This document shows, one piece after another, positions 842-64,000 of a DNA stretch of 64,000 bases. Each line of letters starts with the position of its first letter. The stretch's first letter is position 1. This stretch comes from Amphiscolops sp. MND2022 (Eukaryota): NCBI GenBank assembly GCA_964187785.1, contig OZ076409.1:70806001-70870000 (forward strand), written 5' to 3'. The notes beneath the pieces are model-generated. The model did no database searches. It saw only the letters and a list, made by a program, of their open reading frames with translations, and was not told the DNA's origin. Both the position numbers and the translations under genes were made by a program.

Positions 842-861
842 GGGCATGCCGAGGCATGCCC
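842..861 (+). other. Conserved terminal palindrome GGGCATGCC-GA-GGCATGCCC (representative of 38 copies)
   Basis: Perfect 9-bp inverted repeat, extended by CGTC...GACG; lies about 35-55 nt upstream of the CTAG junction. Confidence 0.95.
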
Positions 862-904
862 TTCGACGACGTATACCAAGATATGCGTTAACGCGTTAGC
901 CTAG

Positions 905-2878
905 GTGCGGGGGGGTAACCCCAACAAATATATTGGAGGATTCGGTTAGGGTCCTGAATCCGATTTTAACTCTAATAGCTATCGATAGGAAATCGTGCAA
1001 AAATTTCGGGATCTCGTGATCTAACCATAGGATTTTAAAGTTGGAGCGGCCCCCACCAGATTTTCCAAAGTTATTCGCCCCCCACCGGGTTCCAGCGTGA
1101 TTGAAATATTTTGACGGGGTACACGGGCGACCGTTAGGGGTCATTTTGGGGGTAAAATTTATATCCGGTCGCATAACTTTTTTCCTGTTGGTTTAAAACT
1201 TTGGGACCCTGCTAAAAGTTTCTTGACCGTGTTGCAGTGGCTCCGGAGGTCCAAACCAAATTTTTCTATCTTGAAGCTATCTCCAAGTACCCCCCCGCTC
1301 AAACCGTTATTTTTCCGGAAACGCAGGTTTTTGACCCGGAAGGAGTCGTCTGAGCGCGTGGTCGTTAGGTGATGTTTTGGGGACGGCCTTGAGACGAAGT
1401 GGGGGACATGTAGTTTGCCAACCTCAGTTTACCCCCCGGACGGGAAATGACCGTTATATGAGCGGGAAAATTGCCCCCCTCCACGTTTAACCGCTATTTC
1501 CGGTGTGAAGGAGTGGGAGTAGCGCGTCGGGTGTCATATATCAAAAGTAGGTTTAGACAAGGACCTATCGGAAACATGTAGTTTGGGACCCCCTGGTCCA
1601 ACCCGTTAGCGAGAAATGGCGCTTCCGCCTCCTTTTTTTACTGCTAAAACCGTAAAATGGGCATTGAGGGGTAAATATCTCGTGAACGCGTGGAGCAATC
1701 GTGTCCATCACTACTACAAGGTTTCATACCCATGATATGGTGCCTTCAGGGGGGCAAACAGATTTCCGCTATCTATCACCGTTACCGACTTGGCCCCCCA
1801 GCCTAACCGCTATGTGACCGGAAATGTCACTTTTTGAGCCCAAAGGGTCGGTCCCAGCCGGGGAACGTTAGGAAACTTATTGTAGTACTCAATGAGACGA
1901 GTTGGGGGATATAGTTTCAGTCACCCCCCGTTACCCCTTGGGACCGGAAATGACCGTTATGTGGGTAAAATTGCAATTTTTATACTTTTTCAAGTGTATT
2001 TAGGTGCGGAAGGCGTGGTAATAGGTGCTTGGACACTATATGAGGTAAGGGAGGACGTGAGGCGAGCATTCGGAAATAACCGTTATGTTGACCCTAAAGT
2101 CCCCCTGGTACCGTAAACGACCGGAAATGGTCAAATTTTGTGTCTATTGGGTACAAATAATTATTATTTTGTAGATAAAAGTTTCTTTTAGGTGTTTCGA
2201 CGGTCTGCAATAGTGAACATAGTCATGAAACCTTGTGGGGGGTAACGGGGTATATAGCACCGGAAGTCCAAACCGTTGGACACAGGATAGGTTTTTGGTT
2301 TGAAAATGTCTTTCGGCGTACTTTTGTCGACTATTATGGACTATTATTAAAAATTAAAGATTTTCCATATAGTTTCAGAGACTCCGAAACCTCAACCAAC
2401 ATAACCGTTACATTTTGATAGCCTTTCAAGTTGGCCTGGTGTCAACTTGGAAGCGCTATCCTTCTGAAATCGTTAATCAAGAGTGTTTTTGGGTAGGTAT
2501 ATATTGCATTAGTACCAATTAGAGCTTCATCAACAGTGTATCAACGACAAAAACTATGCCGTCATGATTCCGTTATCAGAATCATAGTGAGCAAATTGTT
2601 GAAAAAAATGGTTTTTTCCATACAAAATGTGTCCTAAATGCCAGGAAACCTATTTACCTAACAAATGGTATTAATTGGAATGTATGTAACAGAGTTATAA
2701 AAGTTCAAATTGAATATTACATTTCATTATGGAAGCTGAAACGTCATATTTTAGTTTAATTAACGTCCACGCCACATACTTTACATCAACGCCCACCGTC
2801 TGTGGGCATGCCGAGGCATGCCCTTCGACGACGTATACCAAATACATACCCAAACGACGCCCGTACATCCCGGGCTAG
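905..2878 (+). mobile_element. Family A unit (1974 bp)
   Basis: Starts GTGCGGGGGGG; GATAGCC hairpin 2417-2460; terminal hairpin and CTAG. Confidence 0.6.
2417..2460 (+). other. Family A internal hairpin GATAGCC-TTTCAAGTTG...CAACTTGGAA-(G/C)GCTATC (representative)
   Basis: Imperfect inverted repeat in all 8 A units (e.g. 5676-5719, 10944-10987); diverged copy at 52382-52426. Confidence 0.8.
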
Positions 2879-4164
2879 GTGCCGGGATTTCCATTCGATA
2901 AGGAATTCTGCGCGTGTGGGTAGGGCCCCTGGCGCGCTCCTGTGTTTTCGGTTTTCCTACTCCAAATTCACACCCCAGTTATCTCCGATCTCGTAAACTA
3001 TCCATACGATTTGGCTGAAATTTGGCACACGTACCCCCCTCGGCACGGTGAAGATGATTTCCTACTGACGTTTTTCCCGCTAAACATTTTTTGTTGACCA
3101 AAATAACGGTTTTTGGGGTAAAATTTTCAACTTTTTTTAAATTTTATCTTATATCTCGCCACGGGTACACGCTAGCGCTTCCAAACCTTGCTGACGAAAG
3201 TTTGCAAACTGTCTCAGGAATGCTGTGTGAAATTTTCAGCTCAATCGGACTTAAACTCGAGGAGATATAGCGTTTTTCCGGAGCGGGGGGGTTTCATTTT
3301 TCTAACGGTCCAGCTTATCTTTGCCATTTTTTCGAAAATGCACTCGCCTAAAGGCCTCCCCTGGCCGGTTTTATTCCCAGCAAAACCATTTGGCCCTAAA
3401 TACGGAGTTTCAGCGTTCCAGCATTCCCGGGCGAAAAGTTGTGGGACTTAGAAAATTTCAAAAATTTTCAAAAATTTTTTTTCCGTTATTTGGGCCCCCA
3501 AAGTGGGGGAAAAGACCCCCCAACCAGTAAAGCAAGTGAAAGCATGTGCAAAGCCCTTGTTTAGAGGAGAAAAATGCCGTTTAGAACGTCTTTTTATCTT
3601 GGCTCAACGTTGACTTATGACGTTTTGAAGGTGATGTTTGGAGGTGTAAATCACGTGAATAGTAAACGTTATGAGTATTTATCTGATCTGAAAGCCATTG
3701 AGATGCAATATGGTTTGCTCAAAACGTAATTCATGGCAGTTTGGCAATCAATCAACACCCTTTGTTGTCGTTTGACATACTTTTTTGTTGTTATAATAAA
3801 AATTTTGTGTATTTGTTCATTTTTTTCTCATCAAATAACTTGAAACAGTTGAGTACATTCCATCCCCCCTTCCGGGGGAGATGAGAATGTACTCGCAAAA
3901 AGCAGCGAATTACGGCCCTTACCTTCCCGAGCTACGCAGTATAAGGATTACATATTGGTTCCGACATTTTCATAGAGTTAAATCTTGGTAATCTGTCTGG
4001 ATATGCAGAAAAATCAGCACGTGCCTTTTAATACCAAGTTGCTCACAACGACAATTATTTTATATCAACGCCCCCATATTTATCAACGCCCCCCGTCCGT
4101 GGGCATGCCGAGGCATGCCCTTCGACGACGTATACCAAGATATACATCGAGCGCGTTAGCCTAG
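2879..4164 (+). mobile_element. 1.3-kb-class unit, B type (1286 bp)
   Basis: Bounded by CTAG|GTG junctions; left hairpin 2910-2937. Confidence 0.6.
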
Positions 4165-6135
4165 GTGCGGGGGGGTAACCCCAACTTTTTTCTTGGAGGA
4201 ATCGGGTAGGGTCCTGATTCCGAGCTTAGTGCCGCCAGCTATCGTTAAAAACCCATACCTTTTAAACCCGATCTCGGGAACTAACCACGCCCCTTCTTTA
4301 ATTTTTTGGCCCCCACTCACTTTTTGAGAGTAGATCGCCCCCCATTGGGTTCGATGTTGGGCAAAAATGGAGATCATGGGTAACGGGGACCGTTAAGGGG
4401 TAACTCAGGGGGTAAAATTTATTTTTTGCGTCATATCTTTTCCCCCCGTGGATTTAGCGCTTCCGGTCAGCAGACAAAACCTCATGTACGTGATACGGGG
4501 CCTCCATAGGTCCAAACAAAATTTTTCTATCATGCACCGTTACGGACTTGGCCCCCCGGCCCAACCGTTATTTTACCGGAAATTGCACTTTTTGACCGGG
4601 AAGGAGTCGTCTGAGCACGGAGTCGTTTGGTAATGTTTTGTAGTGCATCTGGAGACGTGTTGGGGGACATGTAGTTTGCCGGCCCCAGTTTACCCCCCGG
4701 ACGGGAAATGACCGTTATGTGAGTTTTAAAACTACCCCCCTTCAATTTTCCCCGTTATTTCCGGTGTGAAGGAGTGGGAGTAGCGCGTCGGGTGCCATAT
4801 ATCAAAAGTAGGTTTAGACAAGGACCAACCGGAAACTTGTAGTTTGGGACCCCCTGACCCAACCCGTTAGCCGTTATAAGGGTGATCGCCTCCTTTTTTT
4901 ACTCTCAAAACCGGAAAATGGGCATTGAGGGGTAAATATCTCGTGAACGCGTGGAGCAATCGTGTCCATCACTACTACAAGGTTTCATACCCATGATATG
5001 GTGCCTTCAGGGGGGCAAACAGATTACCGCTATCTATCACCGTTACCGACTTGGCCCCCCAGCCTAACCGCTATGTGACCGGAAATGTCACTTTTTGAGC
5101 CCAAAGGGTCGGTCCCAGCCGGGGAACGTTAGGTAACTTATTGTAGTACTCAATGAGACGAGTTGGGGGATATAGTTTTAGTCACCCCCCGTTACCCCTT
5201 GGGACCGGAAATGACCGTTATGTGGGTAAAATTGCAATTTTTATACTTTTTCAAGTGTATTTAGGTGCGGAAGGAGTGGTAATAGGTGCTTGGACACTAT
5301 ATGAGGTAAGGGAGGACGTGAGGCGTGCATTCGGAAATAACCGTTATGTTGACCCTAAAGTCCCCCTGGTACCGTAAACGACCGGAAATGGTCAAATTTT
5401 GTGTCTATTGGGTACAAATGTTTTGTATTTTGTAGATAAAAGTATCTATTAGGTGTTTCGACGGTCTACAGTAGTGAACATAGTCATGAAACCTTGTGGG
5501 GGGTAACGGTATATAGCACCGGAAGTCAAAACGTTGGAGACAGGATAGGTTTTTTGGTTTTAAAATGTCTTTCGGCGTAATTTTTCCGACTCTTGTGGAC
5601 TATTTTTAAAAATTAAAGTTTTTCCATATAGTTTCAGAGACTCCGAAACCTCAACCAACATAACCGTTACCTTATGATAGCCTTTCAAGTTGGCCTGGTG
5701 TCAACTTGGAAGCGCTATCCTTCTGAAATCGTTAATCAAGAGTGTTTTTGGGTAGGTATATATTGCATTAGTACCAATTAGAGCTTCATCAACAGTGTAT
5801 CAACGACAAAAACTATGCCGTCATGATTCCGTTATTAGAATCATAGTGAGCAAATTGTTGAAAAAATGGTTTTTTCCATACAAAATGTGTCCTAAATGCC
5901 AGGCAACCTATTTACCTAACAAATGGTATTAATTGGAATGTTTGTAACAGATTTATAAAAGTTCAAATTGATAATTACATTTCATTATGGAAGCTGAAAC
6001 GTCATATTTTAGTTTAATTAACGTCAACGCCACACACTTTACATCAACGCACACCGTCTGTGGGCATGCCGAGGCATGCCCTTCGACGACGTATGACAAA
6101 TCCATATCAAACGACGCCCGTACATCCCGGGCTAG
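4165..6135 (+). mobile_element. Family A unit with divergent 5' ~600 bp (1971 bp)
   Basis: 3' two-thirds near-identical to 905-2878; 5' part diverged but colinear. Confidence 0.6.
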
Positions 6136-8109
6136 GTGCGGGGGGGAAACCCCATCCCTTATCTTGGAGGATTCGGGTAGGGTCCTGAATCCGAGTTCAG
6201 TGCCGCCAGCTCTCAGTAGAAATCTGGGAAATTTTTTGCGATCTCGTGATCTAACCATAGGATTTTAAAGTTGGAGCGGCCCCCACCAGATTTTCCAAAG
6301 TTATTCGCCCCCCACCGGGTTCCAGCGTGATTGAAATATTTCGTCGGGGTACACGGGCGACCGTTAGGGGTCATTTTGGGGGTAAAATTTATATCCGGTC
6401 GCATAACTTTTTTCCTGTTGGTTTAAAACTTTGGGACCCTGCTAAAAGTTTCTTGACCTTGTTGCAGTGGCTCCGGAGGTCCAAACCAAATTTTTCTATC
6501 TTGAAGCTATCTCCAAGTACCCCCCCGCCCAAACCGTTATTTTTCCGGAAACGCAGGTTTTTGACCCGGAAGGAGTCGTCTGAGCGCGGGGTCGTTAGGT
6601 GATGTATTGGGGACGGCCTTGAGACGAAGCGGGGGACATGTAGTTTGCCGACCCCAGTTTACCCCCCGGACGGGAAATGACCGTTATATGAGCGGGAAAA
6701 AGGCCCCCCTCCACGTTTTACCGCTATTTCCGGTGTGAAGGAGTGGGAGTAGCGCGTCGAGTGTTATATAACAAAAGTAGGTTTAGACAAGGACCTATCG
6801 GAAACATGTAGTTTGGGACCCCCTGGACCAACCCGTTAGCGGGAAATGGGGCTTCCGCCTCCTTTTTTTACGATTAAAAACGGAAAATGGGCATTGAGGG
6901 GTAAATATCTCGTGAACGCGTGGAGCTACGGTGTCCTTCACTACTACAAGGTTTCATACCCATGATATGGTGCCTTCAGGGGGGCAAACAGATTTCCGCT
7001 ATCTATCACCGTTACGGACTTGGCCCCCCAGCCTAACCGTTAAGTGACCGGAAATGTCATATTTTGAGCCCAAAGGGTCGGTCTCAGCCAGGGAACGTTA
7101 GGTAACTTATTGTAGTACTCATTGAGACGAGTTGGGGGACATAGTTTCAGTCACCCCCCGTTACCCCTTAGGACCGGAAATGACCGTTATGTGAGTAAAA
7201 ATGCCATTTTTGTCCTATTTGAAGGTCATTTAGATGCGGAAGGAGTGGTAATAGGTGCTTGGACACTATATGAGGTAAGGGAGGACGTGAGGCGGGCATT
7301 CAGACATAACCGTTATGTTGACCCCAAAGTCCCCCTGGTACCGTAAACGACCGGAAATGGTCAAATTTTGTGTCTATTGGGTACAAATGTTTGGTATTTT
7401 GTAAATGAAAGTATCTATTAGGTGTTTCGACGGTTTGCAGTAGTGAACATAGTCATGAAACCTTGTGGGGGGTAACGGTATATAGCACCGGAAATCCGAA
7501 CCGTTGGAGACAGGATAAGTTTTTTGGTTTTAAAACGTCTTTCGGCCTACTTTTGTCGACTATTATGGTCTATTTTTGAAAAAATAAATTTTTCCATATA
7601 GTTTTAGAGACTCCGAAACCTCAACCAACATAACCGTTACCTTATGATAGCCTTTCAAGTTGGCCTGGTGTCAACTTGGAAGGGCTATCCTTCAAAAATC
7701 ATTAATCAAGTGTGTTTTTGAGTATGTTTGTATTACTTTAGAATCAATTAGAGCTTCAAGAAAAGTTTGCCAACGACAAAAACTATGTTGTGATGATTCC
7801 GTTATTAGAATACTTGTTAACAAAGTTTTAAAAACGTTGATTTTTTACATTTCAAATGTGTCCTAAATGCCAGAAAACCTCTTTACCAAACAAATGGTAT
7901 TGATTGAATTGTATATAACAGCTAATAAAAGTTCAAACTGAATATTACGTTTCATTTTGGAAGCTGAAACGTCATTTTATAGTTTCATTAACGTCAACGC
8001 CACATACTTTACATCAACGCCCACCGTCCGTAGGCATGCCGAGGCATGCCTTTCGACGACGTATACCAAATTCCTTTAACACAACACCCCCGAGCGCGTT
8101 AGCAGCTAG
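6136..8109 (+). mobile_element. Family A unit (1974 bp)
   Basis: Junction-bounded; compensatory terminal hairpin variant 8032-8051. Confidence 0.6.
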
Positions 8110-13377: not shown

Positions 13378-14645
13378 GTGGCCGTGTCTTTTCGACGTGC
13401 TTTTGCATCGAGGAGTGGGTAGGGCCCCGCGACGACCTAGAAGAATTGGATGCTCACCGAAACGTGCAGAATTCTACGAGATCTCATAGTTTGAGCCATA
13501 CGATTTTGCTGAAATTTGGCATGTGGCCTGGAATTGGTGAGTAGGTAAAACGTGTAGGAGGTGATTTTTCCCAAATTCCACTGTGAGACGAGATATGGGC
13601 AAATAACGGTCCCAAAAATGGCAAAAATGCACTTTTTTCAAGTTTGTCAGCCCATATCTCGTTCCCAGGTGCCCGGAGCGGGACGCGTTAAGCTGATTAT
13701 AAACTCTAGGGTGTTGAGGCTGTACGGGGAAGTCAGGCCCGTTCCGATCGGACTTGTAGTCTTGGAGAAATAACGGTATTTTTGGGGAACCTTTTCTAAC
13801 GGTCCAGCTTATCTTTGCCATTTTTTCGAAAATGTACTCGCCTAAAGGCCTTCCCCTGGCCAAATTTACTCCCAGCAAAACCATTTGGCCCTAAATACGG
13901 AGTTTCAGCGTTCCAGCATTCCCGGGCGAAAAGTTGTGGGACTTGGAAAATTTTCAAAAATTTTCAAAAATTTTTTTTTTCGTTTTCCGGGCCCCCAATG
14001 AAGGGGAAACGACCCCCAACCAGTATTTTGAGTGAATTCATGTGGAAAGCCCTTGTTTTGACGAGAAAAATACCGTTTAGAACATCTTTTTATCTTGACT
14101 CAACGTTGACTTATGACGTTTTGAATGTGATGTAAGGATGTAGGAGGCATGTGATAAGTTGATGTTTTGAGTCTTTATCACATATGAAAGCGGTTGAGAT
14201 GCAAGCTGTCCTGCTCAAAACGTCTTTCGTTGTAATTTTCCAGTGCACCAATACCCTTTGGTGTCATATAAACATACTTTTCGTCGATATATTAACAATT
14301 TTAATGTATTTATTCCCATTTTTATTATCTTATAACTCAAAACAGTTGAGTACATTTCATCTCCCTTTCGGGGGAGATGAGAATGTACTCGCTAAAGACC
14401 TAGCGCCATGACCAAAAGTTTGAAACCCACGTTTTTTATCTTCTTACAGACTTGTTTTTGTATTTTTTCGGAATTTTTTAAAAATTAATATACTTGAAAT
14501 ACATTACTTGACTTTACTACTACAATCCACCTCCAACGTCAACGCCCCCCTGCTTGCATCAACGCCCACCGTCCGTGGGCATGCCGAGGCATGCCCTTCG
14601 ACGACGTATGCCAAATGCCCAGTGCCACGCAGTCATTATCGCTAG
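13378..14645 (+). mobile_element. 1.3-kb-class unit, D type (1268 bp)
   Basis: Near-identical to 23081-24348. Confidence 0.6.
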
Positions 14646-29479: not shown

Positions 29480-30769
29480 GTGCCCGGATTTCTATTCATT
29501 AAAGTATGTTGCGCGTGTGGGTAGGGCCCCGTGGCGCGCTCTTGTGTCCCTGTTCTAAAATCTGTAATTTCCGGCAGCATTCTGAGCGATTTTCTAAACT
29601 ATCCATACGATTCGGCTGAAATTTGGCACACGTACCCCCCTCGGCACGGTGAAGATGATTTCCTACTGACGTTTTTCCCGCAAAATTTTTTTTGTTGTCC
29701 AAAATAACGGTTTTTGGGGTAAAATTTTGAATTTTTTTTAAATTTTATCTTATATCTCGACACCGGTTTACGCTAGCGCTTCAAAACCCTGCTAAAGAAA
29801 GCTTGCAAACTGTCTCAGGAATGCGGTGTGAAATTTTCAGCTCAATCGGACTGAAACTCGGGGAGATATAGCGTTTTTCCGGAGCGGGGGGGTTTCATTT
29901 TTCTAACGGTCCAGCTTATCTTTGCCATTTTTTCGAAAATGCACTCGCCTAAAGGCCTCCCCTGGCCGGTTTTTTTCCCAGCAAAACCATTTGGCCCTAA
30001 ATACGGAGTTTCAGCGTTCCAGCATTCCCGGGCGAAAAGTTGTGGGACTTAGAAAAGTTCAAAAATTTTCAAAAAATTTTTTTTTCCGTTTTCCGCCCTC
30101 CCCCCCTAGGGGAAAAGACCCCCCAACCAGTAATTTGAGTGAATTCATGTGGAAAGGCAATGTTTAGAGGAGAAAAATGCCGTTTAGAACGTCTTTTTAT
30201 CTTGGCTCAACGTTGACTTATGACGTTTTGAAGGTGATGTTTGGAGGTGTAAAGCACGTGAATAGTAAACGTTATGAGTATTTATCTGATCTGAAAGCCA
30301 TTGAGATGAATATGGTTTGCTCAAAACGTAATTCATGGCAGTTTGGCAATCAATCAACACCCTTTGTTGTCGTTTGACATACTTTTTTGTTGTTATAATA
30401 AAAAATTTTGTGTATTTATTCATTTTTTTCTCATCAAATAACTTGAAACAGTTGAGTACATTCCATCCCCCCTTCACGGGGGAGATGAGAATGTACTCGC
30501 AAAAAGCCCCAAACTACGGCCCTTACCTTCCTGAGCTACACAGTATAAAGATTGCATATTGGTTCCGACATTTTGATAGAGTTATATCTTGGTAATCTGT
30601 CTGGGTATGCAGAAAAACCAGCACGTGCTTTTTTATACCAAGTTGCTCACAACGACATTTATTTTATATCAACGCCCCTATATTTATCAACGCCCCCCGT
30701 CCGTGGGCATGCCGAGGCATGCCCTTCGACGACGTATGCTCAAGATATACCCCGAGCGCGTTAGCCTAG
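29480..30769 (+). mobile_element. 1.3-kb-class unit, H head / B body mosaic (1290 bp)
   Basis: Head as at 26905. Confidence 0.6.
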
Positions 30770-50275: not shown

Positions 50276-51345
50276 GTGGTCAAGGGGGATGCCCATCAGA
50301 AAATATTGCGAGGCCGGGGAGGGTCCCGAGAGCCGAGCACATTCTATCAATTCCTACCTTCAGGATTGCGAAGTATTTTAACCGATCTCGGAATTCACCC
50401 GTAGGATTTGTCTGAAACTTTGCATGTGGCTTTATCTCAAAAAATTAGGAATTTTTTTCTGCTGACGTTTTTCCAGGAAAATTCATTTTGTAGGGTTTTT
50501 TGCGTTTTTTTGGTTTTTTTTCATCTTTTTTCATCTTTGATTAATCAATGACCGAATCAAAGGCCATTTTCACCACGAAGGAAAGCCCGTAGCGGCAAAG
50601 TGCACTTTTATGAAAATCATCAACGGTCAACGGTCTTTCGAACGGTCCGAAAAAATTTCCCCCCGGGGGAAACCAAAGTGCCGAAAAGTGCCAAAATTTT
50701 TTTTTTGACTGAATCACTTTGATCAAATTGATGATTTGAGCAGCCGGAACGGTCCGCACGGTCTCGGACAATAAGGTCAAAAATTGTCAGCATCCAATGG
50801 GGGTTCCAAAAATGTAATTCGTTCACCTGTAGGAGACATCAGAAAAAAGTTGATTTTTTGGGGTATATGTCATTATGAGTGATTGGATGAGAAATAATTG
50901 TATCACTTTCAGTTGGATATGATGCAGCACAGGAAGCAGCTGCAGCAAACTTGAAACTGATTATGGGGCTGGGGTTTACCCTCTGTATCGAGCAAAATAG
51001 CCCTAGGGCATAAGTTGTGCCAAAAAATGCCTCAAAGTGATGATTTGGTTATTGCAAATCGATCAGCAAAATTTATTGTCACCGGTGTTCCGAGAGTTGC
51101 GCAGCATCTCGCAGGAACAACGGTGCTTGCTTAGAAAGCAAAGAACCACAAAATCCCTTGAGTTAAGTTGACGGCAGTCACCATAGACATTCACTCGTCA
51201 GGGTGATGATATTTATCGTTCAATCCCAGAATAACTTACAAAAAATTGCTAGCCTCAATATTTCTTTTTCATACTCCATTAGCAAAGGTTGCGCTGTTAA
51301 GTTTAGGCCTTTTACTAGCAGTGCTCTAAATCGCTCCATCGCTAG
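50276..51345 (+). mobile_element. Orphan unit X (1070 bp) lacking the GGGCATGCC terminal hairpin
   Basis: Conserved head (AGGG-loop hairpin, GATCTCG box) and CTAG|GTG end, unique body. Confidence 0.5.
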
Positions 51346-52733
51346 GTGGTTGGGGCGGTCCCCAGAACGCACAAGGAGGCGCGGGGAGGGTCCTGCGCCG
51401 ACGTAGAATAATTTCATATAATACTAGTATCCTACATGGGTGTTTTAGAGGCGATTTTGGAATCTAACCGTAGGATTTGAATAATTTTTTGCATGCGGCC
51501 ATAACTCGAAATTCTAAGAACTTTTTCCTACTGTCATTTTCCCCGCAAATTGTTTTTTGTTGACTTATGGCCGAAAAACCGGAAATAACGTCCTTTTTAG
51601 ACGTTATATCCGAAGTGTCGTCATAACTTTTTTCCAAGGCATGCTAGCGTTCTCGTTCACTTTTACACTTAGTTGCAGCATCTCAAAATACAACTGGTGG
51701 AAAATTTTGGTTGCATTCGGATCACCCCCCACCGAGATAGAAGGGTTCCCCCCTCCAGTTTTACCCCCCAAATTTGCAAAATAGCCAATTTTGAGCATGA
51801 AGCCGAGGATTTAGCGTACCCGCACCCTCCTGATGTTTTGTTGTACGTATTGGGGTCAATCTGACGACATGTGTGGTTTTCACCCCCAACCCCCCCTTGG
51901 ACCGGAAATGACACTTTTTTGTGTTTTTTGGCAGAATTTAGCCTTTTTCATTATTAGGCAGTCGTTTTAGGGACTCCTAGCAGGATATCGAAATTGAAAT
52001 ACAACCTGATCACACTCCAGTGACAACATGTTGGCCACTTGGAGGTATCATCATGACCGGAAGTGGGGTCAACCCCCCTTTTTGTGACCGCTTTTTGACC
52101 TTGTGCACCAAAATGCCAACAACTTGAGGCCTAATGACGCATTCAAATCTGTACAAAGATAGAATGTTAGACAACTGAAGTCCCGGAAGATCTTAGCATA
52201 TAGCCGGAAGTTACCCCCCATGACCGGAAGTTACCCAATGTGACCGGAAATGGTCCAAAAATTAATGAAAAGTTGAATTTTTCACTATTTCAAGAGCACT
52301 TCATTGAACATTTTCAATCGCAAAACTAGCGTATTGGCTTGTTTTGCTGAATTTATGGAAATTGATGAGCCCTATCACCCCCGATAGCCTTCGAAGTTGA
52401 CCTTGCGTCAACTTTGGAGGCTATCGATACTGAAAATGAACAACAAAGTACATTGTTGCTCTCGGTTTTTTCCCGTTGTTTTTCCTCAAACATTCTTGAG
52501 ACATTAACATGGCCGTTAGTTGAAATCAATATTTAGCCCATGTTATAGCTGGACCAGCGAAGCGTTACACAGACTAGTGTGGTTTTGAAATTACATTATT
52601 TAAATTAACAACAGATCGTTTTAGTCAACTCCACACATTCATACCAACGCCCACCGTCTGTGGGCATGCCGAGGCATGCCCTTCGACGACGTATGACGAA
52701 TCCACTCCAACGACACCCGCAGTCCTCAGCTAG
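51346..52733 (+). mobile_element. Orphan unit Y (1388 bp): G-like body, A-like 3' end
   Basis: Left hairpin 51378-51399; GATAGCC hairpin 52382-52426; terminal hairpin and CTAG. Confidence 0.55.
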
Positions 52734-54903
52734 GTGGAGGTTATTATATATCAATTAAAGTGTTTTTTTCCGGAGTTTGTGGCTTTGGAAAAAACAAAAG
52801 GCGAGAAATTGGGCACTCCAGGCTGAACCTAAAAACACCCTAAAATTCGCCCGATTTTTTTACGATCTCGAAACCCAACCGTACGATTTGGCTGAAAATT
52901 TGCATGTGGCTCCTAATCAATGAGTAATGAAAAAGTGTAGGAGTGACTTTTCCTGGGAAAATTGTTTTTGTTGCACTTTTTGCGCAATTTTTGACCGATT
53001 GTTGCGTTTTTTATGTCACTTTTGACTTTTCAGGCAAAAAACTCATAGATGCTTTGATCCTAGCGCATCGAGTGTTTCGACCAAAAAGTTGCAACATGGT
53101 CTTTTACGTACGTTGAGAAAATTTGGTAGCCATCGTATTACCCCCCACTGAGATAGAGGGAACTTCCGGTGGATTTTCGCACTCTAAAAACGAGGACCTC
53201 CTAAATTTCAGCATGAAGCCGTAGTTTTAGCGTGCTCATACCCTGCTGAAGTTTTGTTGGGCATATTGAGATAGTTATGATATCATGTGTTCAGTTCACC
53301 CCCCATCACCCCCTGGACCGGAAATGAACTTTTTTTGCACTATCATACCGGAAGTCTCCAATTTCACCGTTAAGCAGTTCTTGTACGAGCAACTACCAGG
53401 ACATCAAAATTGAAGTACCACCTGAGGTCAACGTAGTGACTACGTGTTGTCCAGTCATAGGTTCCGCTATGACCGGAAATGGGGTCCAAACCCCCTTTTT
53501 TGGTTGTTTTTCAACAATTTTACGAGTGTTTGGTCCACATTCAAGTCGCGTAAGTCAATTGAATCAGTGTGAGCATAAACTGTATGTTCACTGCGTAGAC
53601 GTAACTGACACTGACAGATACCGGAAGTAACCCCCCGTGACCGGAAGTTGTCATTTTTGACCGGAAATGGTCCAAAATGTAGCGTAAAATCAGTTTTCCA
53701 CTGCTTTTTAAAGTCAACTTATTATTTTTTCAATCTCCGCGAGCTTGTATTCAGGTTCGTTTTTGTTACCCGTGCACTTTGCAACAAATATACATCTGTA
53801 AAATTTTCTCTATAATATCTTCGGATAGAGAAATAACGTGTTTTTGAGACTTTTTTCAAAAATATTAGACTATATCTGTCATTTACCCAAAGTTTTTCAA
53901 CATAACGACCACAGTGGTTCGTCTCTGCCCAAATTTGTGCCTAAAAAACTATTTGGCCCATTGGCCTCAGTTTGAGCGTTCCAGCTTTGCGTGATCATAA
54001 GCTAAGGGACTTGAAAAAATTTCGAACTTTTTTCAAAAAAAAATTCTCACATTCATGTCTCCCAAAGTGAAGAAACTTCCACACAACTAGGATTGCAAGT
54101 GGATGCATGTGGCAAGCCCTATAATTGAAGGGAAAAATGCCGCTTAGAACGTCTCTTTATCGTAACTTGACGTTAACGTATGGTGCTTTGAATGAGAGCT
54201 TGATAAGAGGTCGAGAAGTCAAAGTGTGTAAATGGAACGTATGTCTCGTCGAAAACTCACCGGAATTCATGCAATGAACCCCAATTGTCCTCAATTGCAG
54301 TTGCCTACTGCAACAACGTCTTTCTGGTACATTTTACTCTTTTTCATAAGTGTCAAAATTATTTTTAAATTCAGTTAGCAAGAAACACTTGAGTACATTT
54401 TCATCTCTCCCCAGCGGGTGAGATGAGAATGTTCTTGCTAAATGCCAGGTACTACGGCCCCCCTTTTGTTTTAATGCGACGCATTCTCTGCTTTAGCACA
54501 TAGATATTTCATTTCGCCTGGTTTTTTGTATACTCTCTGACTTGTTATTATAAAGTTCTCGTCATTACTGTACATAAATTTACAACCATAAATCGTTATC
54601 GGCAACGCCACATACACTTAGACACCCACCATTCTGTAGGTATGTCGAGGCATACCTTTCGATTATGTCATAACGCAAACGCGATAAAAAGTGCTGAAAT
54701 TCAGAAACAGTGACAATCAATTTTCACTATTTGACATATGGTAGGTTTTTATAGGGAACTTACACATCACTGACATTTCACAACATTCCAGCTGACGCCC
54801 ACATACCATATTAACGCCCACCGTCCGTGGGCATGCCGAGGCATGCCCTTCGACGACGTATGCCAATTTTTTTATATCTACACTCAATTGCGGTAGCAGC
54901 TAG
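52734..54903 (+). mobile_element. Family G2 unit (2170 bp)
   Basis: Homologous to 48090-50275. Confidence 0.6.
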
Positions 54904-57088
54904 GTGGAGGTTATTTTATAATAATTAAAGTGTTTTTTTCCGGAGTTTGTGGCTTTGGAAAAAACAAAAGGCGAGAAATTGGGCACTCCGGGCTGAACCG
55001 TATACACTCAAAATTCGCCCAAAATTTATACGATCTCGAAACCCAGCCGTACGATTTGGCTGAAAATTTGCATGCGGCTAAAAAATCAGATTCTAAGAAC
55101 TATTTCCTGCTGACATTTTTTTGAAATTTTTGTGTACGTTTCCCCCCCGCCCCCTAAAGGGGTCAATTTTCCCCAATTTTGCACTTTTTAGTCAAATTCT
55201 CAAAACTGGTGGATCTGAGCTTTTTCCCGATGGGGACAACTTTTAACAAGCGCTGTTCAGTAGACCTTTTTGACTTTTTACTTTGGTGGTACGTTCACCC
55301 CCCAAGGAGGAAATGGCGTTTTTGTGACTTCCGGTCGAGACTTTTTTCACCCAAAAAATAGAAATAAGCCAGTTTTGAGCAAGAAGGAGTGGATTTAAAG
55401 TGTCTGTACCCTGCTAAAAATTTGTGGGGCGTGTAGCGATATATCTCATACCAAGTGTGGTTTTCACCCCCGAACCCCCCTCGAGACCAAAATTCACCCA
55501 AACGTTTTACCTCTATTTGTGGTTTTTTCACAAAATGTCGTCATTTCCATCGGCAAAGATTTGAATTAGGGGCTCCTAATAGGGTACCAAAGTTCAAGTA
55601 CACTTGGAGTGCAACTGAGTGACCCTTTTTGGGACTCTCGTGTGTTCGGCAATAACCGGAAGTTGTATAAACCCCCCTTTTTTGACGTTTGTTGACCTTG
55701 AGACTCGCGCTTAGATGACGTTTATGTCGCGCAAATCCTACAAACCAGTATTAGAATGACATGCTAGCCAACTAGAGAGCAATAAGGGAAACTATACTAT
55801 ACCGGAAGTAAACCCCTCTTGACCGGAAGTTGTCATTTTTGACCGGAAATGGTCCAAAACCTAGCGTGAAAGCTGTTTTTCATTGCTTTTAAAGTCAACT
55901 TATTACTTTTTTCACTCTGCGCGAGCTTGCCTTCAGGTTCGTTAGTGTTGCCCGTACACACTGCAACAAATATACATCTGTAAAATTTTCGCTATAATAT
56001 CGTCGGAGAGAGAAATAACGGGTTTTTGGGATTTTTTTTCAAAAATATTAGTGTTTATCTGTCATTTTTACCCAACGTTATTGAACAGTAGAACCATAGG
56101 GGTTAGTATTCGCCCAAATATATGCCTAACAAAAGCACTTGTCCCATTGGTTGCAGTTTGGGCGTTTTAGCTTTGCCTGGTCACAAGTTAGGGGACTTGA
56201 AAAACTTTCAAAATCATTTCCGAAATTTTTTTCTAAACGTCACGTCTCCCAAAGTTAAGAAACTTCCTCACAACTAGGACCGCAAGTGAATGCATGTGGT
56301 TAGACCTATAAATGGAGAGAAAAACTCCGTTTAGAACATCTCTTTATCGTAACGTGACGTTAAGAGATGTTGCTTTGAATGTGAATTTGATAATGCGTCG
56401 AGAAGTAAAAGTGTGTAAATGGAACCTTTGTCTCGATAAATACTCCTCGCAATACATGCGATGAACCCCAATTACCCTCAGTTTCAGTTGCTTAGTACAT
56501 CAACGTCTTCCAAGGACCTTTTATCTATTTTGAAAATGTCGAAATCATTATTAATATCAGTTATCAAGAAACACATGAGCACATTCTCATCTCTCCCCAT
56601 CGGGTGAGGTGAGAATGTTCTTGCTAAAAGCCAGGTACTACGGCCCCCTTTTGTTTTAATACGATGCATTCTCTGCTTTAGCTCATAGATATTTTTTTTC
56701 GCCTGATTGTTTGTATACTCTCTGACTTCTTGTTATAAATCTCTCGTCATTACTTTACATAAATATACAACCAAAAATCATTATCGTCAACGCCACATAC
56801 ATTTAGACGCCCACCATTCCGTAGGTATGTCGAGGCATACCTTTCGATTACGTATGTCAAAACGCAAACGTGATAAAAAGTGCTGGAAGTCTCAAACAGT
56901 GACAAACAAATTTGACTACTTGAAATATGGGAGGTTTTTATATGGAACTTACACATAGCTGACATTTCACAACTTTGCAGCTGACGCCCACATGCCAACA
57001 TCAACGCCCACCGTCCGTGGGCATGCCGAGGCATGCCCTTCGACGACGTATAGCAAATCCCTTTCACCGACGCGCACTCTCCCGCTAG
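54904..57088 (+). mobile_element. Family G1 unit (2185 bp)
   Basis: Near-identical to the adjacent 57089-59273. Confidence 0.6.
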
Positions 57089-59273
57089 GTGGAGGTTATT
57101 TTATATGAATTAAAGTGTTTTTTTCCGGAGTTTGTGGCTTTGGAAAAAACAAAAGGCGAGAAATTGGGCACTCCGGGCTGAACCGTATACACTCAAAATT
57201 CGCCCAAAATTTATACGATCTCGAAACCCAGCCGTACGATTTGGCTGAAAATTTGCATGCGGCTAAAAAATCAGATTCTAAGAACTATTTCCTGCTGACA
57301 TTTTTTTGAAATTTTTGTGTACGTTTCCCCCCCGCCCCCTAAAGGGGTCAATTTTCCCCAATTTTGCACTTTTTAGTCAAATTCTCAAAACTGGTGGATC
57401 TGAGCTTTTTCCCGATGGGGACAACTTTTAACAAGCGCTGTTCAGTAGACCTTTTTGACTTTTTACTTTGGTGGTACGTTCACCCCCCAAGGAGGAAATG
57501 GCGTTTTTGTGACTTCCGGTCGAGACTTTTTTCACCCAAAAAATAGAAATAAGCCAGTTTTGAGCAGGAAGGAGTGGATTTAAAGTGTCTGTACCCTGCT
57601 AAAAATTTGTGGGGCGTGTAGCGATATATCTCATATCAAGTCTGGTTTTCACCCCCGAACCCCCCTCGAGACCAAAATTCACCCAAACGTTTTACCTCTA
57701 TTTGTGGTTTTTTCACAAAATGTCGTCATTTCCATCGGCAAAGATTTGAATTAGGGGCTCCTAATAGGGTACCAAAGTTCAAGTACACTTGGAGTGCAAC
57801 TGAGTGACCCTTTTTGGGCCTCTCGTGTGTTCGGCAATAACCGGAAGTTGTATAAACCCCCCTTTTTTGACGTTTGTTGACCTTGAGACTCGCGCTTAGA
57901 TGACGTTTATGTCGCGCAAATCCTACAAACCAGTATTAGAATGACATGCTAGCCAACTAGAGAGCAATAAGGGAAACTATACTATACCGGAAGTAACCCC
58001 CTCTTGACCGGAAGTTGTCATTTTTGACCGGAAATGGTCCAAAACCTAGCGTGAAAGCTGTTTTTCATTGCTTTTAAAGTCAACTTATTACTTTTTTCAC
58101 TCTGCGCGAGCTTGCCTTCAGGTTCGTTAGTGTTGCCCGTACACACTGCAACAAATATACATCTGTAAAATTTTCGCTATAATATCGTCGGAGAGAGAAA
58201 TAACGGGTTTTTGGGATTTTTTTTTCAAAAATATTAGTGTTTATCTGTCATTTTTACCCAACGTTATTGAACAGTAGAACCATAGGGGTTAGTCTTCGCC
58301 CAAATATGTGCCTAACAAAAGCACTTGTCCCATTGGTTGCAGTTTGGGCGTTTTAGCTTTGCCTGGTCACAAGTTAGGGGACTTGAAAAACTTTCAAAAT
58401 CATTTCCGAAATTTTTTTCTAAACGTCACGTCTCCCAAAGTTAAGAAACTTCCTCACAACTAGGACCGCAAGTGAATGCATGTGGTTAGACCTATAAATG
58501 GAGAGAAAAACTCCGTTTAGAACATCTCTTTATCGTAACGTGACGTTAAGAGATGTTGCTTTGAATGTGAATTTGATAATGCGTCGAGAAGTAAAAGTGT
58601 GTAAATGGAACCTTTGTCTCGATAAATACTCCTCGCAATACATGCGATGAACCCCAATTACCCTCAGTTTCAGTTGCTTAGTACATCAACGTCTTCCAAG
58701 GACCTTTTATCTATTTTGAAAATGTCGAAATCATTATTAATATCAGTTATCAAGAAACACATGAGCACATTCTCATCTCTCCCCATCGGGTGAGGTGAGA
58801 ATGTTCTTGCTAAAAGCCAGGTACTACGGCCCCCTTTTGTTTTAATACGATGCATTCTCTGCTTTAGCTCATAGATATTTTTTTCGCCTGATTGTTTGTA
58901 TACTCTCTGACTTCTTGTTATAAATCTCTCGTCATTACTTTACATAAATATACAACCAAAAATCATTATCGTCAACGCCACATACATTTAGACGCCCACC
59001 ATTCCGTAGGTATGTCGAGGCATACCTTTCGATTACGTATGTCAAAACGCAAACGTGATAAAAAGTGCTGGAAGTCTCAAACAGTGACAAACAAATTTGA
59101 CTACTTGAAATATGGGAGGTTTTTATATGGAACTTACACATAGCTGACATTTCACAACTTTGCAGCTGACGCCCACATGCCAACATCAACGCCCACCGTC
59201 CGTGGGCATGCCGAGGCATGCCCTTCGACGACGTATAGCAAATCCCTTTCACCGACGCGCACTCTCCCGCTAG
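57089..59273 (+). mobile_element. Family G1 unit (2185 bp)
   Basis: Near-identical to the adjacent 54904-57088. Confidence 0.6.
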
Positions 59274-61650
59274 GTGGTCGGGGTGTGTTTCCCAGCCGAT
59301 TTTGCCGCGCGGGGAGGGACCCGTTCAGCGGCCCAGGTCATTATTTTTTTACATTAAAAAAAACGATACCCCGGAAAGCGATTTCGAAACCCACCCGTAG
59401 GATCCCTCTGAATTTTTGCATACACCTCCGTATAACAGTTCTAAGAAAAAGTCAGCAAGGGCGTTTTCAGTTCTAAACGGGGAATGTTGACCAAAAAGCG
59501 CAATTTATGTCCAAAAAAATGCAATTTTTCGACTTTTTTATTTTTGACGGCCAACAGCTCTTTTCCAGATGCCCGCCCAAGTCATAAACCGGAGTAAACT
59601 TTTGTTGGGCACTTCGTGAAGAATCTTTAGGGTGATTTTCGTTTCATTCCTATTTCCTGACGTTGACTTATAATTGGGTGAAAAAACGCAACATTTGTTA
59701 CAAAAAGTGCTTTTGGTACTCAAGGGCCCATAACTCGTGACATAATCAATTGAGCAAGTTCGTGTATACTTACGATTTTGTTGCCTATCTATAGGAGAAC
59801 AAACAAGCAGTGACAAAACTTTCTGTGGGAAGACGTCAAAAAAAGATATCACAGGTTTTATAATCAATAAAACAGTGTTTTTCGGTTATCGTGGAAAAAA
59901 TGTAAAAGGGTGGCATTTTTCGGCTGTTTAAGGTAGCGGGTATTTTATTGCTGTTATTAACTCACCTCTAGAATTCATTTACTTGGATGATTTTCAATTT
60001 TGATAAATTACATGATAAACTTCATTTTTTGCGTCACCAATATTGACACCCACGATTACAGTCATTTTTTTCGCGTTCACGTTTTTGAGTGGATATAACT
60101 TTTTTCCAGTGTGTTTTACGGTCATCATCCAAGAGCACAAAATTGTTGGCCGTCTTAAGCAGAAAATATATGGTAAGTTTAGAGTCATTTGAAACGTTTT
60201 TGAAATGTCCAGAGATGCACAAATTTACAGTTTTTTTGCCCACAAAACACTATTTTACGAAACCCAACACTTTTTGCCAAAAAAGTCAAACTTTGTCCAC
60301 ACAACTTAGATTGCAAGTGAATGCATGCGGAGAGTACTTGAAATGATGGGAAAAATGAGCTATAGAACGCTCATTTACGACAACCTGACGTGGACTTAGG
60401 ACAATTTGAAAAAGTACGAAAAAAAAGAACAACGGTTCCAAAACAATCAGTTTGTAGTAAATGGCCAATAACTCCATACACAACCTTCCGCGCAAGCTAG
60501 TGTCCAAGTACGTTTTTGTTACCCGTGAACAGTGCAACAAATAAGTAAAAGTAAAACTTTATGTAGAGAATCGTCGGAGAAAGAAATAACGGGATTTTTT
60601 GTCACATTTAAGAGACAAAATTGAAAAATTAGTCTATTCCTGGCATTTTACCTAAACTTTTTCGACAGTACACATACAGGAGGTAAAATTCGCCCAATAC
60701 CATGCCTAACAAAACTATTTGATCCATTGGCCGCAATTTGAGCGTTCCACCTTTCCCCAGTCATAAATTATGGGACTTCGAAATTTTTCAAAATTTCCAT
60801 TTTTCAACAAAATTTCAAATTCAGGCCTCCCAAAGGTAAGAAAGTTCCACACAACTAGGATTGCAAGTGGTTGCATGTGGAAAGTGCTCGATCCGACGAG
60901 AAAAATGGGCTTTAGAACGTCTCTCTATCGTAACCTGACGTTGACTTATGATGTTTTGAATGTGAGACTGCTACGTGCTCGAGAAGTGTAAGTGGAACAT
61001 ATGTCTCGTTGAAAACTCATCGGAATACATTCAATGAACCCAATCACCCTAAATTGCAGTTTCCTAGTGCAACAACGTCTGTCAAGGACCTTTTTTGATA
61101 AGAGTCGAAATTATTATTAAATTCAGTTAGCAAGAAACACTTGAGTACATTCTCATCTCTCCCCATCGGGGGAGATGAGAATGTACTTGCTAAAACGGCT
61201 TCTTTGTTTTCATGCGATGGATTCTGTGCCTTGCCACACATATAACTTTGTTTTGTGTGACCTTGCGTATATACTTTGACTTGTCATAATAAATTTTTTC
61301 TCGTAAATTTACGTAAATCAACAATGCATCTACAATGCACCTTCAACGTCAAAGCCAAATAAATATAGCTGGCCACCGTCCGTAGGCAGAGCAAGGCATG
61401 CTTTTTGACGACGTATTCCGAAACACAAACGCAAACAAAACTGCTGAAAATCGGAAACAGTGACCAACAATTTTGACTGTTTGACATATGGTAGGTTTTT
61501 ATATGGAACTTACACATCACTGATATTTCACAACATTTCAGCTGACGCCCACCTACCACTATCAACGCGCACCGTCAGTGGGCATGCCGAGGCATGCCCT
61601 TCGACGACGTATGGCTAACACCTTCAGCGACGCCCCCACTGCGCCCCTAG
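59274..61650 (+). mobile_element. Family F unit (2377 bp)
   Basis: Homologous to 43347-45717. Confidence 0.6.
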
Positions 61651-64000
61651 GTGGTCGGGGTGTGTTTCCCAGCCGTTTTTGCCGCGCGGGGAGGGACCCG
61701 TTCAGCGGCCCTGGTAATTCAAAATGTACATTCAAAAAGTGACCACCCTGAAAGCGATTTCGAAACCCACCCGTAGGATCCCTCTGAATTTTTGCATACA
61801 CCTCCGTATAACAGATGTAAGAAAAAGTCAGCAAGGGCGTTTTCAGTTCTAAACGGGGAATGTTGACCAAAAAGCGCAATTTATGTCCAAAAAAATGCAA
61901 TTTTTCGACTTTTTTATTTTTGACGGTCAACAGCTCTTTTCCAGATGCCCGCCCAAGTCATAAACCGGAGAGAGCTTTTGTTGGGCACTTCGTGAAGAAT
62001 CTTCAGGGTGATTTTCATTTCAATCGTATTTCCTGACGTTGACTTTTATGTGACGCAATTAGGTGACAAATTGGGTGAAAAAACGCAATTTTGGTACTAT
62101 AGGGCTCATAACTCGTTACAGAGTCAGTTTAGCAAGTTCATTTATATTTACGTTTTTGTTGTCTATCTATAAACAAACAATTAGGCAGAGACAAAATTTT
62201 CTGTGAAACATCGTGAAAAAAAGATATCACAGGTGTAAAAAACGCAAAAAATGTACTTTTTCGGATTTCGTGGAAAAAATTCAAAAAAGTCACATCTACC
62301 GGCTGTTTCAGGTAGCGGGGTTTTTATTGCAGTTAATAGCTTACCTTTAGCAGTCATTTACTTGGATGGTTTTTGATTTTGATGAATTGCATGAAAACTT
62401 TCATTTTTTGCCTCACCAATATTGACACCCACGACTACAGTCGATTTTTCGAAATCACGTATTTAACTGGATATAACGTTTTTCCTGTGCGTTTTACGGT
62501 CCTCACACAGGGGTGCAAAATTGTTCCCCGTCTTAAACAGAGGGCATATGGTGAGTTTAGAGTAATTTGAAACGTTTTTGAAATGTCCAGAGATGAACAA
62601 ATTTACGGTTTTTTTGCCCACAAAACACTATTTTACGAAACCCAACACGTTTTGCCAAAAAAGACAAACTTCGTCCACACAACTTAGATTGCAAGTGGAT
62701 GCATGCGAAGAGCACTTGAAATGACGAGAAAAATGAGCTATAGAACGTTCCTTTACGACCACCTGACGTGGACTTAAGATAATTTGAAAAATCACAAAAA
62801 AGAACAACGGTTCCAAAACAATCAGTTTGTAGTAAATGGCCAAAAACTCCATACACAACCCTCCGCGCAAGATAGTGTACGAGTACGTTTTTATAACCAG
62901 TGAGCAGTGCAACAAATAAGCAAAAGTAAAACTTTATGTAGAAAATCGTCGGGAAAAGAAAAACGGGATTTTATATCACATTTAGGTGACAAAATTCAAA
63001 AATCAGTCTATCCATGGCATTTTCCTTAATATTTTTCGACAATACACCCACACTGGGTAAAATCTGCCTAAAATTGTGCCTACTAATACTATTTGATCAT
63101 TTGGCCGCAAATTGAGCGTTCTAGTTTCCCCAGTCAAAAATTATGGGACTTCGAAATTTTTCAAAATTTTCATTTTTCAACAAAATTTCAACTTCAGGCC
63201 TCCCAAAGGTAAGAAAAACCCACACAACTAGGATTGCAAGTGGATGCATGTGGAAAGTACTTGAATAGACGAGATTAATGGGCTTTAGAACGTCTCTCTA
63301 TCGTATTTTGACGTTGACTTATGATGTTTTGAATGTGAGTTTGCTAAGGGGTCGAGAAGTCAAAGTGTAAAAGTGGAACATATGTCTCGTCGAAAACTCA
63401 TCGGTATACATGCAATGAACCCCAATCACCCTCAATTACAGATGACTAGTGCAACAACGTCTGTCAAGGACATTTTTTGATAAGTGTCGAAATCACTACT
63501 AAATTCAGTTAGTAAGAAACTCTTGGGTACATTCTCATCTCTCCCCATCGGGGGAGATGAGAATGTACTTGCTAAAACGGTATCTTTTGTTTTCATGCGA
63601 GACATTATGTGCTTCGGCACATAGAAAACTTTGTGTTGTCTGACTTTTCGTATATACGTTAATTTTTCATGAATTTTCTCGTCATTACGTAACAAAAACT
63701 TTCTACCATTCACCTTTAACTTTAGATTCCTAATAATAAATTTAGACTCCTGTCGTCGAAAAACATACTGAGGCATGTTTTTCGACGACGTATGCCGAAA
63801 CATAAATGCGAACAAAAGTGCTGAATTTCAGAATCAGTGACAAACAATTTTGACTATTTGACATATGGTAGCTTTTTATATGGATCTTACACATCACTGA
63901 TATTTCACAACATTCCAGCTGACGCCCACAATCCAACATCAACGCCCATCGTCTGTGGGCATGCCGAGGCATGCCCTTCGACGACGTATGGCTAATACCT
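61651..64000 (+). mobile_element. Family F unit, cut by the window end just after its terminal hairpin
   Basis: F head; terminal hairpin 63957-63976. Confidence 0.6.

Follow-up and report, generated by a model that had tools for sequence, protein, structure and literature searches.

Why should 39 consecutive units of non-coding DNA, drawn from about ten sequence families, meet at one and the same heptamer, and why should nearly all of them carry the same 20-nt palindrome shortly before it? The question is raised by a 64-kb stretch of the genome of Amphiscolops sp. MND2022 (contig OZ076409.1 of assembly GCA_964187785.1, positions 70,806,001 to 70,870,000), referred to here as the window. An earlier note on this DNA had read the palindrome as a signal for rolling-circle transposition, partly on the strength of double substitutions that preserve pairing between its arms. 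We think it probable that the units are non-autonomous HUH rolling-circle transposons in which the block around the palindrome would be a protein-bound right-end signal, marking the next CTAG for cutting and joining. The main interest of the locus lies in its architecture, in which single units of mixed families share one joining site that has a hairpin to either side.

In the window, 38 copies of the heptamer CTAGGTG delimit 39 units of 1.1-2.4 kb each, the first and last of which are cut by the window edges. The principal features of the array and of its right ends are as follows.

1-64000, + strand: head-to-tail array of 39 non-coding units in about ten families
804-835, + strand: two direct copies of the motif CAACGCC about 20 nt apart, just upstream of the block
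836-870, + strand: 35-nt invariant block around the palindrome, -6 to +9, unpaired bases included
842-861, + strand: terminal palindrome, first of 38
862-900, + strand: spacer from hairpin to CTAG, first example
901-907, + strand: junction CTAGGTG, first of 38
Starts of palindromes 1-19, + strand: 842, 2804, 4101, 6062, 8032, 9347, 11329, 13304, 14577, 16566, 17867, 19141, 20454, 21729, 23011, 24280, 25571, 26840, 28129
Starts of palindromes 20-38, + strand: 29417, 30705, 32019, 33983, 35271, 37236, 38527, 39798, 41095, 43272, 45647, 48020, 50200, 52662, 54829, 57019, 59204, 61580, 63957
Starts of junctions 1-19, + strand: 901, 2875, 4161, 6132, 8106, 9408, 11402, 13374, 14642, 16638, 17928, 19202, 20516, 21790, 23077, 24345, 25631, 26901, 28190
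Starts of junctions 20-38, + strand: 29476, 30766, 32082, 34057, 35332, 37306, 38593, 39865, 41154, 43343, 45714, 48086, 50272, 51342, 52730, 54900, 57085, 59270, 61647

In the labels of this analysis, the units succeed one another in the order BABAABAACABBbBDCBBBBBbAcADdBEFFEGHEEEFF. Body identity within the groups is 73-99.6%, families B to F are mutually homologous (about 60-84% over 250-1300 bp), and comparison of units shows the bodies to be mosaic. The earlier remark that the bodies are hard to align holds only for family A, which has little beyond its ends in common with the other families, and for the units at 50276 and 51346, which are largely unrelated to B to D.

We scanned the window for the 20-nt palindrome, allowing up to 4 mismatches, and recovered 38 copies, all perfect (842-861 to 63957-63976), in agreement with the earlier note; the flanking motif always has the same orientation. 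The palindrome, whose length falls inside the 16-20 nt range of HLE1 elements, is present in 38 units out of a total of 39, a further junction at 51342 closing a unit that has none. Its outer pair is G-C in 35 copies and A-T in 3, and single-arm changes occur in 0/38. The A-T copies, already described as changed in both arms and as belonging to families A and F, were confirmed.

8032-8051, + strand: A-T outer-pair allele, family A, with tail type and C at -3 in common with the copy at 33983
33983-34002, + strand: A-T outer-pair allele, family A
45647-45666, + strand: A-T outer-pair allele, family F

The predicted fold has 8 bp closed by a CGAG loop, with z about -3 for either strand (the program permits no 2-nt loops). 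Copies lie in the context CGTC-N-GT...TTCGACGAC, in which N is C in 29, T in 8 and A in 1, and one copy has TGTC. The outer CGTC/GACG pairing with a 3x3 internal loop that had been proposed can be drawn, but it displays no two-sided change in the 38 copies and is missing from centroid folds. Only 3 positions between -6 and +9 vary among the 38 copies. The loop and the unpaired positions -2, -1, +1 to +3, +8 and +9 are identical in 38/38. Since unpaired bases are as invariant as paired ones, and since the outer helix lacks two-sided changes, the frozen block has the pattern of a site that would be read mainly by its sequence and not just as a stem. About 14.5 variable sites in 20 would be expected from body variation within families, and 2 were observed (binomial P = 8e-9, which presumes independent sites and no homogenisation and is hence overstated). 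The CAACGCC copies upstream are possible protein-binding repeats.

A control is provided by families E and F, in which a second copy of the right-end motif lies about 200 bp upstream with no junction following it.

43076-43095, + strand: internal relic, family E (also at 50006, 54638, 56823 and 59008)
63752-63789, + strand: internal relic, family F (also at 45451 and 47825), with a mismatch adjoining the loop
61384-61403, + strand: internal relic, family F, unconverted and broken, with three mismatches and one G-T pair

Perfect arms are found in 0/9 internal relics, versus 38/38 terminal copies. The family-E relics have the A-T outer pair, a second two-sided change and one T-G pair. When arm changes were compared in 8 of the 9 relics and 4 terminal copies (the omitted relic had the same palindrome), the relics proved to hold single-arm as well as two-arm changes. 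In 3 of the 4 F relics the left flank is now the reverse complement of the unchanged right flank, transversions included, and the 3x3 loop is closed; after this conversion the relic at 63752 has perfect arms of 15 bp. The loop is never closed in the 38 terminal copies or in L003, a metagenomic relative considered below. Template switching between the arms of inverted repeats yields such conversion, according to passages of PMC8604942 and PMC3820800, and the arm-to-arm copying in the F relics means that double changes arise here without selection. The relics are therefore a warning that two-sided changes in a palindrome can stem from template switching and are alone no proof of structural selection. 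They also show that the terminal block is under constraint, because they decay and the loop is open in all terminal copies. The terminal palindrome is real and constrained.

The A-T outer pair is also present in all 9 internal relics and in L003's terminal copy. The allele is therefore probably old, and one ancient change is enough to account for every case. Both A-T copies in family A carry C at -3, a position occupied by T in the remaining six A copies, and because they share this linked allele as well as a tail type they represent one event. They probably received their end from another family. The evidence for compensation amounts to one pair with two alleles and is weak by itself; the A-T/G-C change was likely one old mutation that template switching copied to the other arm and that spread as families exchanged ends. 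With unpaired bases equally invariant, the double substitutions lose the evidential value that had been placed on them. The proposal of a rolling-circle cis signal nonetheless stands on other grounds, namely the position of the palindrome, the difference in arm integrity between terminal copies and relics, and the relation to the first CTAG.

That relation is strict. The junction is the first CTAG after the hairpin in 37/37 units, a hairpin precedes 37 of the 38 junctions, and 100 CTAGs in unit bodies are never followed by a left end. Every left end is preceded by CTAG, array junctions being the ones observed. The unit boundary lies somewhere inside the 7 nt of CTAGGTG, and the adjoining bases vary at once on both sides. 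In 37 measurable units the spacer from hairpin to CTAG is 39-54 nt, a correction of the earlier 35-55 nt that leaves it, as had been pointed out, longer than the about 11 nt of a canonical Helitron. Its sequence is variable past about +18, and the spacer or tail type is usually linked to the upstream body, not to the downstream left end. One tail type is common to families A and E, indicating tail exchange. Two smaller tail variants were seen, a one-base insertion shortly after the block in one family-B unit (30725-30745) and a CCCG change at +10 to +13 common to units 9347, 17867 and 32019, across two subfamilies.

No direct repeats beyond the heptamer are common to the units, and a shared heptamer is indistinguishable from distinct ends; TC is absent in or next to CTAGGTG at 38/38 junctions. 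A search of the units for terminal or subterminal inverted repeats (TIRs, subTIRs) was negative, the best match with one mismatch having a mean of 8.3 versus 8.7 in shuffled sequence and a maximum of 11 in 3/37 units, at unshared places. Pairing of tails with left ends likewise gave no signal (own -7.5, next -7.3, all -7.1 kcal/mol, standard deviation 2.2). The string (T/G)AGG occurs in the junction (901-907), the right loop (849-855) and the left loop (4206-4212), and the CGAGG of the L003 junction is the same string as in the right-hairpin loop; either may be chance.

The left ends and unit interiors contain further conserved elements.

4198-4221, + strand: left-end hairpin, family A example, core GG-(T/G)AGGG-N-CC with a family-specific outer stem
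41187-41218, + strand: left-end hairpin of family E, same position, different loop (5 units)
2988-3070, + strand: conserved left block
590-637, + strand: central palindrome of about 45 nt, type of families B to F and L003
2414-2462, + strand: central palindrome, second type, family A and the unit at 51346
50276-51345, + strand: unit with a normal left end and CTAG junction, without terminal or central palindrome

The real covariation resides in the left-end hairpin, not in the right. The left loop falls at +39 to +45 in 33 of 38 left ends, and in an alignment of 14 ends, selected to span the families with E excluded, two-sided changes affect 5 of 8 predicted pairs. Of 25 haplotypes, 24 fold better on the + strand, which forms G-T pairs in 21. 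Between the family-A copies at 4198-4221 and 6169-6192, an A-T to T-A swap affects both arms. The left block starts at about +105 to +111 (about +130 in family E); its strict pattern is present in 30/38 left ends, at +105 to +111 in 23 of them, and at +110 in L003. This block near +110 may resemble the DINE-1 core. Central palindromes of the first type end 186-395 nt upstream of the terminal hairpin, and one or other of the two unrelated types is found in 36/39 units. The unit at 50276-51345 has a body that is unique in the window past about +240 (about 830 bp), possibly a captured flank; this unit may travel as a composite with the next one, or the hairpin may not always be required. The left-end hairpin, the central palindrome, the +110 block, the palindrome-less unit and the tail exchange all go beyond what the earlier note contained.

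How the array grew can be read in part from its most similar members, of which one pair stands out.

54904-59273, + strand: only near-identical adjacent unit pair, 99.6%

We compared the neighbours of the 22 closest unit pairs (94-99.6%): in 13 of them the neighbours on both sides differ in family, and in the other 9 there is a neighbour pair of one family, but at only 78-93%. Units of nearly the same sequence thus stand next to different neighbours, so units move one at a time, with breaks at the junction, and because tails follow the upstream body the breaks lie in the heptamer. Single units thus appear to enter at hairpin-marked junctions. Families A to D occupy the first 41 kb and E to H the remainder; the order of families is random in each half (P 0.58 and 0.32), with an overall P of 0.013. 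Other routes were considered. A concatemer of one circle, or higher-order duplication, was rejected as the main route since neighbours differ between similar units, and a nick inside the hairpin block was rejected because tails go with the upstream body. Misassembly at the junction is unlikely, only 7 nt being shared and the same kind of junction occurring in L003 and in one contig from a sequencing run (2792-2939).

Relatives were sought beyond the window. In metagenomes, a scan with the stem left free gave 3 hits, 1 of them a true relative (L003, 9/9 pairs) and 2 due to chance (2/9 pairs, no similarity to the window). The body of L003 is about 60-70% identical and its block is identical; the A-T allele, the left hairpin, the central palindrome and the +110 block are all retained, and the spacer is 48 nt long. 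Its junction (880-886) reads CGAGGTG, in which AGGTG is kept and the CTRR rule is broken. A search of 185,579 prokaryote genomes gave 0 hits with a fixed stem and 1 chance hit with a free stem, and thus no relative, and three scans of viral contigs gave 0 hits, 6 chance hits (1-3 of 9 pairs) and 0 hits. Of two sequencing runs, X1 and X2, one contains 26% and the other 5% of words; no RNA run was among those listed. Assembled on 1700-4010, they yielded 14 and 6 short contigs of low depth, and no array edge or solo flank was seen among the contigs listed for this interval at that depth. One X1 contig spans 2792-2939, and the differences listed for it include some in the tail and none in the palindrome or heptamer. 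In one X2 contig, also of low depth, the right-end block follows a B-type body after 46 letters, as it would in a deletion derivative. We found no description of mixed-family arrays of this kind in the open-licence literature; Repbase Reports and subscription papers lay outside the search.

How would such an array be built by rolling-circle transposition? We infer every enzymatic step; the array, shared ends, junction, relic decay and single-unit shuffling are observed. A transposase encoded elsewhere would recognise a left end by the hairpin at +30 to +60 and nick the + strand there, within CTAGGTG. The strand would be displaced up to the right-end block; cutting at the first CTAG beyond it and joining to the left end would then produce a circle of one unit. 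The preferred target would be the right end of a resident unit, hairpin plus CTAG, so that any family could be stacked head to tail. First-CTAG junctions (37/37), the 100 unused body CTAGs, arm integrity (relics 0/9, terminal copies 38/38), the movement of single units, tails that go with the upstream body, the left-end hairpin, the conserved ends of L003 and the lack of TIRs or subTIRs support this reading, and there are precedents for its parts. In Helraiser a 19-bp palindrome before CTAG terminates transposition and circles have precise head-to-tail junctions, and in bats 5' ends abutting 3' ends occur (passages of PMC4778049). It is the plus strand that forms the junction (part of PMC5876387). 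For IS801 and IS1294, the target tetranucleotide is the terIS cleavage tetranucleotide, and subterminal palindromes are present at both ends (part of PMC13181058).

Several observations weigh against this reading. Pfam searches of 82 open reading frames (ORFs) from 9 representative units found no transposase or remnant, indeed no match above cut-off and one below it (E 0.016). No empty site or array edge that would fix the cut position in the 7 nt or show the lack of a target duplication was found in the window or the run contigs. The left end is not TC, the spacer far exceeds about 11 nt, and L003 has CGAG in place of CTRR. The right hairpin has no strand preference in folding, the + strand bias of the left hairpin may partly reflect G-richness, a left hairpin is not clearly formed in family C (z +0.8 and +1.4), and unit 50276-51345 ends in a junction without any hairpin. 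The Helraiser stem is exchangeable in sequence (passages of PMC4778049), unlike the frozen one here. Finally, since families exchange ends, the block could become homogeneous with no selection acting on it.

Other explanations account for parts of the same evidence. Single-unit shuffling at a fixed 7-nt core, hairpins about 30-55 nt to either side of it and a cassette-like mixed order would all suit site-specific recombination cassettes, Crypton-like or integron-like, in which a tyrosine recombinase excises and re-inserts circles at CTAGGTG and the hairpins are folded or bound arms. In Cryptons and integrons, such cassettes have a core of 6-8 bp between inverted binding sites for the recombinase. 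Here the sequence to either side of the core is variable from its first base and holds no inverted binding sites, the spacers differ by up to 15 nt in length, the units are without genes, and prokaryote genomes and viruses contained no relative; a search of open-licence papers for Crypton and Dada literature yielded nothing, and we consider this explanation unlikely. A Replitron-type origin, with an HUH transposase lacking a helicase, would make the heptamer a terminal direct repeat shared by neighbours and would include the right-end palindrome; we rate it as quite unlikely. Passages of PMC10288648 attribute to Replitrons short direct terminal repeats, about 53 bp of conserved ends, a right-end palindrome, kilobase-sized non-autonomous forms (one of 910 bp) and insertion 3' of RG, and the junction here holds AG and GG. 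Yet the hits shown from the 7 supplementary files of that paper include no terminal match (6 passages, all internal), its relevant passages describe neither tandem nor mixed arrays, and the hosts named there are green plants and algae, stramenopiles, cryptophytes and haptophytes.

The hairpin might instead be functionless, in a satellite-like array of dead elements whose ends are kept uniform by gene conversion and template switching. Tail exchange between unrelated families, mosaic bodies and the arm-to-arm copying visible in relics agree with this, but relics 200 bp away in the same units decay, the 3x3 asymmetry that copying has closed in 3/4 F relics is kept in 38/38 terminal copies and L003, the L003 block is identical despite 30-40% body divergence, and no higher-order repeat of the kind left by unequal crossing-over is present; a dead array is very unlikely. 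RNA-based units, either retrozyme-like monomers with a self-cleaving ribozyme or stacked intron-like units, are suggested by the GT...AG reading obtained when units are cut after CTAG and by G-T pairs that favour the + strand in left hairpins. We regard them as highly improbable: Rfam (gathering score) and tRNA searches of the window found nothing, and 2600-4300 gave only sub-threshold Rfam matches; a hammerhead core occurs at 0/38 ends on either strand, and strings like the loop of hepatitis delta virus ribozymes occur at 11 ends, all in family-specific sequence outside the block; and L003 ends in GAG. Dada elements are target-specific cut-and-paste transposons. Similar transposons without TIRs that re-insert at one site, with a 7-bp target duplication between them, would explain the constant 7 nt between all units and the insertion of single units. 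The window, however, contains no RNA gene that could serve as target, be it for snRNA, tRNA or another RNA, a hairpin before CTAG is a known rolling-circle right-end form, and the L003 heptamer differs, which makes this the least probable of the explanations considered.

Within the rolling-circle reading, the units would resemble several known groups. HLE1 elements have 3' CTRR, 5' TC, a 16-20 nt palindrome about 11 bp from the end and insertion at A/T without duplication (passages of PMC11417382 and PMC4067079). With HLE1 (Helraiser, Helibat) the units share an about 20-nt palindrome before a terminal CTAG and the lack of TIRs, and head-to-tail junctions and tandem arrays of Helitrons are reported in parts of PMC4778049 and PMC5876387. 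All 38/38 window junctions have CTAG. Unlike HLE1, the units start with GTG (or TG), have the palindrome 39-54 nt before CTAG, show CGAG in L003, combine a stem and unpaired flanks frozen across families with a left hairpin that covaries, and form long arrays mixed unit by unit. They are non-coding with a hairpin at each end (weak in family C), as in HLE2 (Helentron, Helitron2, HINE, DINE-1), and a passage of PMC4067079 places the palindrome of mite HINEs up to 35 bp from the 3' end; in contrast to HLE2, they have no subTIRs of 11-18 bp, their ends are not T runs, and the junction is CTAGGTG, not T-T/T-C. Like the units, the IS91 family (IS91, IS801, IS1294) has subterminal palindromes at both ends; its target tetranucleotide is equal or close to its own terminal cleavage tetranucleotide, and it makes no target duplication (part of PMC13181058). 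It is bacterial, however, and its tetranucleotide alone is the target, whereas 100 body CTAGs are unused here, the unit ORFs have no tnpA match and the prokaryote genomes hold no relative. In Helitron-derived subtelomeric arrays of Hydractinia and Paramecium there are large local accumulations of Helitron-related non-coding repeats, described in passages of PMC13085455 and PMC11934779 as single-family repeats or satellite-carrying elements; many families at one 7-nt site are not described in those passages. In sum, the units would work in a Helraiser- or IS91-like way, yet they appear to lie outside the definitions of HLE1, HLE2 and IS91.

Some further observations concern the unit bodies. The array has two domains, 1-41157 with units of 1.3 and 2.0 kb and 41158-64000 with units of 2.2-2.4 kb and two shorter ones. 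Family E is composite (41158-50275, 52734-64000), its left half related to the unit at 51346 and its right half B-like. Family F is composite with internal duplications (unit positions 409-594 with 1148-1333, and 1024-1138 with 1575-1689), and family A has one internal duplication, 311-570 with 814-1070. Short tandem repeats with periods of 10 bp and 20 bp occur at 13947-13974 and 52204-52249, and CCGGAA-type motifs recur in families A and E and in the unit at 51346.

A broader proposal, which we put forward tentatively, is that these are undescribed eukaryotic single-strand transposons with ends C(T/G)AG and GTG that land on their own right-end hairpin, unrelated families thereby building integron-like cassette arrays tens of kb long that are conserved across species. 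If the rolling-circle reading holds, the target would be strict and self-renewing, unlike the near-random A-T insertion of canonical Helitrons, and mixed long-period satellite arrays would arise from serial insertion, not from unequal crossing-over or concatemer rolling. The shared ends offer a handle for finding the transposase, a candidate site-specific integrase.

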